Assembly: GCF_016903815.1 (NCBI RefSeq)
Contig: NZ_CP069973.1
Strand: one strand, 5' to 3'
DNA from: Escherichia coli
Lineage (GTDB): Bacteria; Pseudomonadota; Gammaproteobacteria; Enterobacterales; Enterobacteriaceae
Length of the DNA: 64,000 nt
Under the pieces are notes generated by a model. That model was given only the letters and a program-made list of their open reading frames with translations, was not told the origin of the DNA and did no database searches. Of the stretch, positions 44,909 through 45,004 are shown one piece after another (the stretch's first letter is position 1; the number at the start of each line of letters is the position of its first letter). A program made the translations under genes and the position numbers.

Positions 44909-44977
44909 GAGCTGACCCCTTGGTTACGAATACAGAGTACAAACCCCGTACAAAAGTACGGGGCATAATGCAATTAT

Positions 44978-45004
44978 AGATGGGGGGGATTTTGAGGGTT
45001 TCAA
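44978..45004 (-). promoter_or_regulatory. sigma-32 heat-shock promoter of hslVU
   Basis: Minus strand reads TTGAAA-ccctcaaaat-CCCCCCATCT, matching sigma-32 -35/-10 consensus; the -35 overlaps the ftsN stop. Confidence 0.75.

Follow-up and report, generated by a model that had tools for sequence, protein, structure and literature searches.

A sigma-32 heat-shock promoter over the ftsN stop codon and a hairpin in the leader of hslVU in Escherichia coli

Which element at the junction of ftsN and hslV starts the transcription of hslVU, and what does the hairpin that follows it do? The question was raised by a stretch of Escherichia coli DNA of 64,000 nt (NCBI RefSeq assembly GCF_016903815.1, contig NZ_CP069973.1), the whole of which is called the window here. 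According to its ORF list, the gene order in this region is priA-cytR-ftsN-hslV-hslU-menA, with every gene on the minus strand. The original prediction, made from the sequence alone, proposed a sigma-32 promoter that overlaps the ftsN stop codon and is followed by a perfect hairpin in the hslV leader. We assign a probability of about 0.9 to the reading that this element serves the hslVU (clpQY) protease operon as its heat-shock promoter for sigma-32 (RpoH), with a hairpin after it in the leader. The promoter and leader of this operon in E. coli K-12 were reportedly first described by Chuang et al. in 1993 (Gene 134:1). Since then the promoter, its sigma factor and the stabilizing hairpin have all been published and curated in Rfam, and the reading is correct but ordinary. 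The present analysis adds a reconciliation of the start site, in which a leader of 61 nt replaces the 71 nt of the literature, and a wide comparison, which shows that Enterobacterales keep both the overlap of the -35 element with the ftsN stop and the place of the hairpin, and that the stem covaries strongly. It also raises the question of attenuation in a heat-shock operon, because the leader hairpin is terminator-like in several families.

A 601-nt query centered on the promoter and hairpin found a match in 5425 of 5426 complete E. coli genomes, with the annotation ftsN / hslV. Positions 44880-45020 of the window are identical to E. coli K-12 MG1655 (MG1655 coordinate = window coordinate + 4077379), and the K-12 literature therefore applies directly to the window. 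On the minus strand, the promoter part reads GGGGG-TTGAAA (45004-44999), CCCTCAAAAT, CCCCCCC (44988-44982), ATCT and ATAATTGCATTATG, and the leader part reads CCCCGTAC-TTTT-GTACGGGG (44963-44944), TTTGTACTCTGTATTCGTAACC, AAGGGG (44921-44916), TCAGCTC and GTG (44908). The features are listed in Table 1.

Table 1. Features at the ftsN-hslV junction, in window coordinates and in the order of the minus strand.
Feature	Position	Strand	Remarks
ftsN coding sequence	45001..45960	-	TGA 45003-45001; ORF list; annotated in 5425 E. coli genomes and MG1655
Sigma-32 -35 element GTTGAAA	44999..45005	-	-36 to -30 from the mapped start; invariant in 45 aligned species
Seven-C run	44982..44988	-	Reaches from the 3' end of the spacer into bases 1-4 of the -10 element; recurrent slippage site
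Sigma-32 -10 element CCCCATCT	44978..44985	-	-16 to -9; 13 nt 3' of TTGAAA
Perfect TATAAT	44973..44978	-	Shares one base (44978) with the end of the sigma-32 -10 element; TTGAAA is 20 nt away
hslV-hslU transcription start (an A; MG1655 4122348)	44969	-	SMRT-Cappable-seq
hslV 5' untranslated leader, 61 nt	44909..44969	-	Fold: 5 unpaired nt, hairpin, open up to the ribosome-binding site
Leader hairpin, +6 to +27 of the mRNA	44943..44964	-	8-bp perfect stem, UUUU loop, closing G.U (44964/44943)
Rfam RF02401 ClpQY_promoter match	44906..44963	-	Hairpin, leader, ribosome-binding site, GTG
Shine-Dalgarno AAGGGG	44916..44921	-	7 nt 5' of GTG; near-invariant in the 45-species alignment
hslV (clpQ) coding sequence, GTG start	44378..44908	-	ORF list; E. 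coli genome and MG1655 annotation
hslU, next after hslV	43037-44368	-

The promoter motif stands out from the background, in that TTGAAA-N12-16-CCCCATNT has a single match in the 64-kb window, with 0.01 expected from shuffles. GTTGAAA agrees with the -35 criterion CTTGAA(A), and CCCCATCT agrees with the -10 criterion CCCCATnT at a spacing of 13-14 nt. The ftsN ORF ends at 45001 and its TGA lies inside TTGAAA, just where the -35 hexamer had been predicted to cover the stop codon. Because the -35 element includes this TGA, the promoter is placed on the extreme end of ftsN. The proposed TTGAAA-N10 motif with its run of Cs is likewise present at its place, but the run holds seven Cs where six had been claimed.

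The sigma-32 consensus has CTTGAA at -35 to -30 (PMC10216364). In dnaK P1, the reference sigma-32 promoter and the scaffold of an open-complex structure (PMC10216364), CTTGAA lies at -35 to -30 and CCCCATTT at -15 to -8. The hslVU promoter has the same 13-nt TTGAAx-CCCCAT spacer, as read from the scaffold sequence, together with a -35 element of the CTTGAA type and a CCCCATnT -10 element. The two differ in the start, which is 9 nt beyond the last base of the -10 octamer in hslVU and 8 nt in the dnaK P1 scaffold, and in the first base of the -35 heptamer, which is G in hslVU and C in the dnaK P1-type consensus. This G stands at the third position of the final glycine codon of ftsN, which accounts for it.

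Dependence on RpoH has been demonstrated experimentally. Lien, Yu, Liou and Wu (2009; PMC2681174) described TTGAAA and CCCCATCT as the RpoH promoter of clpQY (hslVU), in a sequence identical to that of the window. In clpQ::lacZ fusions and Northern blots, both basal and heat-induced expression were lost in rpoH but not in rpoS mutants (PMC2681174). When a C of the -10 element was changed to T (CCCCATCT to CCTCATCT), expression was lowered and the RpoH-dependent heat induction was abolished; basal expression fell only 1.7-fold, which we count against the best explanation (PMC2681174). With the motif, these published experiments and the mapped start described below, the prediction of an hslVU sigma-32 promoter over the ftsN stop is supported. 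To place ChIP-chip peaks on the window, we took the U00096.2-to-.3 offset to be 1977. In the genome-wide ChIP-chip data (Cho 2014), which give peaks but no start site, SigH, SigS and RNAP peaks were found over the promoter interval, and a SigD peak was absent. RpoH binding at hslV is also reported for Salmonella.

The transcription start was taken from SMRT-Cappable-seq data (Yan et al. 2018, supplementary table), in which two entries give the b3932|b3931 (hslV|hslU) unit as NC_000913.3 4120362-4122348 on the reverse strand. The lower coordinate of this unit, 4120362, adjoins the known hslU terminator, so that 4122348 must be the capped 5' end; it corresponds to 44969 in the window. This start is 9 nt past CCCCATCT, in agreement with the sigma-32 criterion of a start a few nucleotides downstream of the -10 element, and it puts TTGAAA at -35 to -30. 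Thus the comparison with mapped hslVU starts, which had been proposed as a check, favors the promoter: the cap-mapped start fits it and does not place it elsewhere.

The published account of E. coli K-12 hslVU (Lien et al. 2009) has the same -35 and -10 elements, 20-nt inverted repeat, ribosome-binding site and GTG as the window, with no difference in sequence, and the sole discrepancy is the quoted leader length of 71 nt (PMC2681174) against the cap-based 61 nt. A start 71 nt 5' of the GTG corresponds to window position 44979, which is within the authors' own -10 element, and the primer of their "71-nt" construct begins at CATCTATAATTG (PMC2681174). A leader of 71 nt conflicts with the cap mapping, because +1 would fall inside the -10 element. 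We take the length of 61 nt to be correct; the 71 nt of the literature looks like a 10-nt counting or mapping error.

A weak, low-score 3' end on the plus strand was noticed in the Term-seq data of Adams et al. (2021) at MG1655 4122347 (window 44968). It is 5 nt beyond the palindrome and one base from the minus-strand hslVU start. This 3' end may belong to an antisense RNA protected by the hairpin, or it may be a library artefact derived from the 5' end of the mRNA.

From the ftsN stop to hslV, the hairpin in the leader is the sole stable structure. Its stem, CCCCGUAC-UUUU-GUACGGGG (44963-44944), occupies +7 to +26 of the transcript. The arms of the palindrome (44944-44951 and 44956-44963) have 8 nt each, are 100% complementary and enclose a loop of 4 nt, and 0 chance matches are expected. 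In the RNA fold a G.U pair lengthens the stem to 9 bp; the hairpin forms with -17 kcal/mol (z = -5.8 vs shuffles), and the region of the ribosome-binding site remains open. Folding of the leader had been suggested as a test, and its outcome agrees with the original prediction, as does the location of the hairpin within the 61-nt leader. Two details needed correction. The stem is indeed perfect but begins at 44944, one base off the predicted 44943, and the aaaa given for the loop is true of the plus strand, but the transcribed minus strand has UUUU. Five unpaired nt (AUUAU) precede the 9-bp stem when transcription starts at 44969; strict 5'-terminal protection of the ompA type needs roughly 2-4 unpaired nt or fewer.

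An Rfam search returned RF02401, a cis-regulatory element. The match scored 63.6 bits, above the gathering score of 42 (E = 2e-13), and covered model positions 1-57 of 57, with the stem in its modelled position. Despite its name, the model spans the hairpin to the GTG, and the promoter itself is outside it. Matches to isrG, naRNA4, a CRISPR direct repeat and anti-hemB in the region were far below their thresholds and were rejected as chance matches.

The function of the hairpin has been addressed by mutation. Stability of the mRNA requires a 20-nt inverted repeat of the 5' UTR, CCCCGTACTTTTGTACGGGG (PMC2681174). Deletion of 40 bp of the leader or of the inverted repeat resulted in less mRNA, and deletion of the inverted repeat shortened the mRNA half-life after rifampicin (PMC2681174). 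The stem-breaking substitution S-IR reduced mRNA abundance as the deletion did, whereas R-IR, a stem of different sequence and equal predicted stability, restored both mRNA and function (PMC2681174). The stabilizing effect on hslV mRNA was seen under a foreign promoter without ftsN; no recognizable RNase E or RNase III motif was found, and Hfq had no effect (PMC2681174). These published experiments show that stabilization of the mRNA depends on the structure of the stem and not on its sequence, and the covariation reported below is consistent with this.

To compare relatives, a genome scan with HslV gave 80 species loci, mainly from Enterobacterales with a few from Vibrionales and Alteromonadales. 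A site resembling TTGAA(A/T/C)-13/14-CCCCATnT was present no more than 300 nt upstream of hslV in 79 of the 80 loci, and in 69 a long ORF ended at the TGA within TTGAAA. A stable hairpin (-10 kcal/mol or better) beginning 5-25 nt after the -10 element was found in 60 of the 80. The sequence of the stem varied while its pairing was kept, as in CCCCGCAC/GTGCGGGG, GCCCTGAGC/GCTCAGGGC, CCCCAAAC/GTTTTGGGG and CTCCGCGC/GCGCGGAG. Covariation was assessed in a MAFFT alignment of 45 sequences that had not been fitted to any structure. Among these 45 sequences, 94.7% of the cells in the hairpin helix were paired, and 7 of its 8 pairs changed on both sides. For the hairpin and a candidate outer helix taken together, the covariation score was 0.351 compared with 0.181 in shuffles, a value reached by 0 of 500 shuffles, and sliding the 3' partners by 1-3 columns as a control left 35-45% paired.

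When RF02401 was run on 20 diverse loci, 10 were matched; the other 10 were below threshold, most of them with a hairpin at the same place. The misses were long-stem or divergent lineages. In Serratia, Rahnella, Yersinia and Photorhabdus, the leader hairpins had 14-21 bp and reached -29 kcal/mol at the same position (loci L019, L025, L033, L036, L038, L043, L047, L051, L053 and L064). Among the long-hairpin loci tested with the model, those of Rahnella (L033) and Photorhabdus (L043) fell below its threshold.

The outer helix, between TTGCA (44973-44969) and TGCAA/GUAA before the ribosome-binding site, was 73.6% paired, chiefly via sequence conservation. It was rejected for the hslVU mRNA, because a start at 44969 leaves the 5' arm out of the sigma-32 transcript; the pairing could form only in RNA that reads through from ftsN. 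At its arms (44969-44973 and 44923-44927; alignment columns 39-43 and 108-112), TTGCAT and TGCAA/TGTAA were conserved and complementary in many species, with little covariation. TTGCAT is more readily understood as a conserved part of the promoter's initiation region.

Taken together, these data give the following picture. RNA polymerase with sigma-32 binds GTTGAAA and CCCCATCT, 13 nt apart, and initiates at position 44969, an A. Nucleotides 1 to 27 of the leader, which is 61 nt long, fold into a GC-rich hairpin of 8-9 bp with only 5 unpaired nt ahead of it, and this structure lengthens the life of the hslVU message and thereby increases the output of HslV and HslU. In our preferred reading, the hairpin may block access or scanning by RNase E from the 5' end in an ompA-like manner, and would so hinder 5'-end-dependent attack by this nuclease (with RppH). 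The 5' stem-loops of ompA and papA, cited in PMC2681174, are likewise near the 5' end and lengthen mRNA life, with structure mattering more than sequence. The hslVU stem differs from them in the five unpaired nt ahead of it, and the pBAD constructs of Lien et al. presumably carried an extra, vector-derived leader ahead of the stem. Because of these five nt and the vector leader, strict ompA-type 5'-terminal protection may not be the mechanism.

A different view of the hairpin is that it is mainly an intrinsic terminator or a protective 3' end structure of ftsN, and lies in the hslV leader only through the promoter overlap. With the promoter lying over the ftsN stop, any structure that terminates ftsN transcripts has to be within the hslV leader, where the hairpin is the only stable structure and begins 37 nt after the stop codon. 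SMRT-Cappable-seq revealed cytR-ftsN units that end after ftsN, in addition to ftsN-hslV-hslU read-through units. The hairpin shares with Rho-independent terminators a GC-rich stem of 8-9 bp and a 4-nt loop soon after a stop codon. A full U tract is present in relatives: in 11 of the 80 loci (Pantoea, Erwinia, Tatumella and others), at least six of the 9 nt after the homologous hairpin are T, giving a canonical terminator in the leader. In Photobacterium, the terminator of the upstream gene is ahead of the promoter, and the leader hairpin is far weaker. However, the E. coli hairpin departs from such terminators in its tail, UUUGUACU, which does not qualify as a U tract. A consensus scan called no terminator on the minus strand, and no 3' end on that strand appears at 41223xx in the searchable Term-seq tables of Adams et al. 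(2021). Furthermore, the stabilization of hslV mRNA without ftsN (PMC2681174) is at odds with a role confined to ftsN, as is the stem of Escherichia, Citrobacter, Enterobacter and close relatives, which covaries without a U tract. We consider it unlikely that the hairpin serves mainly ftsN or that termination is its sole role; an additional role as a leaky terminator, which ends a fraction of the ftsN transcripts, is plausible, though we hold it tentatively.

A tract of 6-8 Ts came after the leader hairpin in Tatumella, Pantoea, Erwinia and Hafnia, and Dickeya (L037) had 5 Ts in 9 nt. These tracts (loci L041, L062, L066, L071, L074, L052, L039 and others) lay about 60-30 nt upstream of hslV, at locus positions of about 1440-1475. 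Such a hairpin amounts to a canonical intrinsic terminator, which lies about 15-45 nt beyond the sigma-32 promoter and suggests either attenuation of hslVU or a terminator shared with ftsN. In three Photobacterium loci (L072, L075 and L078), 60-130 nt upstream of hslV, a GC hairpin with a T run, the terminator of the upstream gene, preceded the CTTGAAA...CCCCAGAT promoter. The Photobacterium leader hairpin was short (5-6 pairs) and weak, which fits a strong enterobacterial stem that serves ftsN too.

The roles could also be combined. The hairpin might act as a leaky terminator or 3' end for ftsN and cytR-ftsN and, with the hslVU start 6 nt ahead of it, as a 5' stabilizer of hslVU. In the Erwiniaceae, Pectobacteriaceae and some other families with a U tract, it may be an attenuator that ends part of the sigma-32 transcripts about 30-40 nt after the start, and the seven-C run would be a slippage-prone knob on promoter spacing under thermal selection. 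We regard this joint scheme as speculative and rather doubtful as a whole.

With regard to the promoter, the perfect TATAAT at 44978-44973, discussed by Lien et al. as a putative RpoS -10 site (PMC2681174), could itself be the operative element with sigma-70 or sigma-S, the sigma-32-like motif being incidental. The mapped start is 4 nt after this hexamer, the SigS ChIP peak covers the promoter, and some basal expression remains in rpoH mutants (PMC2681174). However, the distance of 20 nt from TTGAAA to TATAAT is too far for sigma-70, and no SigD peak was found at the promoter. A scan of 44300-46200 called no sigma-70-type promoter, and TATAAT therefore has no usable -35 partner. In the genetic experiments, neither an rpoS mutation nor mutation of the putative RpoS -10 site had an effect, whereas an rpoH mutation and the CCCC-to-CCTC change abolished induction (PMC2681174). 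Conservation points the same way, as CCCCAT is near-invariant while TATAAT is replaced in relatives by TATACT, TATCAT or ATCTGT. We consider this explanation very unlikely.

Least likely of all is that the palindrome is no mRNA stabilizer but serves as a DNA site for a dimeric regulator, as an RNA thermometer or as a translational switch. It is a perfect 8+8 repeat at +7 to +26, a place at which elongation could be blocked by a repressor, and the operon is temperature-regulated. However, pairing is conserved but the sequence of the half-site is not (CCCTGAGC, CCCCAAAC, CTCCGCGC; 14-21 bp in the stems of Serratia, Yersinia and Photorhabdus), a pattern expected of a structured RNA and not of a palindrome bound by protein. 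The stem leaves the ribosome-binding site free, and Lien et al. reported no thermosensitive segment and found that a stem of different sequence restores function (PMC2681174).

The run of seven Cs has also been hit repeatedly in evolution experiments. The heat-evolved strain BM28 carries a 2-bp deletion in the run, and the authors of that study argue for a possible shift of the promoter towards sigma-70. In an experiment on rescue at 43 C, two independent populations fixed a 1-bp deletion at REL606 4101844 (-74/+19), equivalent to window position 44982, whereas hslVU is inactivated by most of the other mutations that gave rescue. These recurrent deletions agree with an influence of the promoter on fitness at high temperature. 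The homopolymer behaves like a slippage-prone knob on the spacing between the -35 and -10 elements, and a loss of 2 bp from it would give TTGAAA-N18-TATAAT, a plausible sigma-70 promoter.
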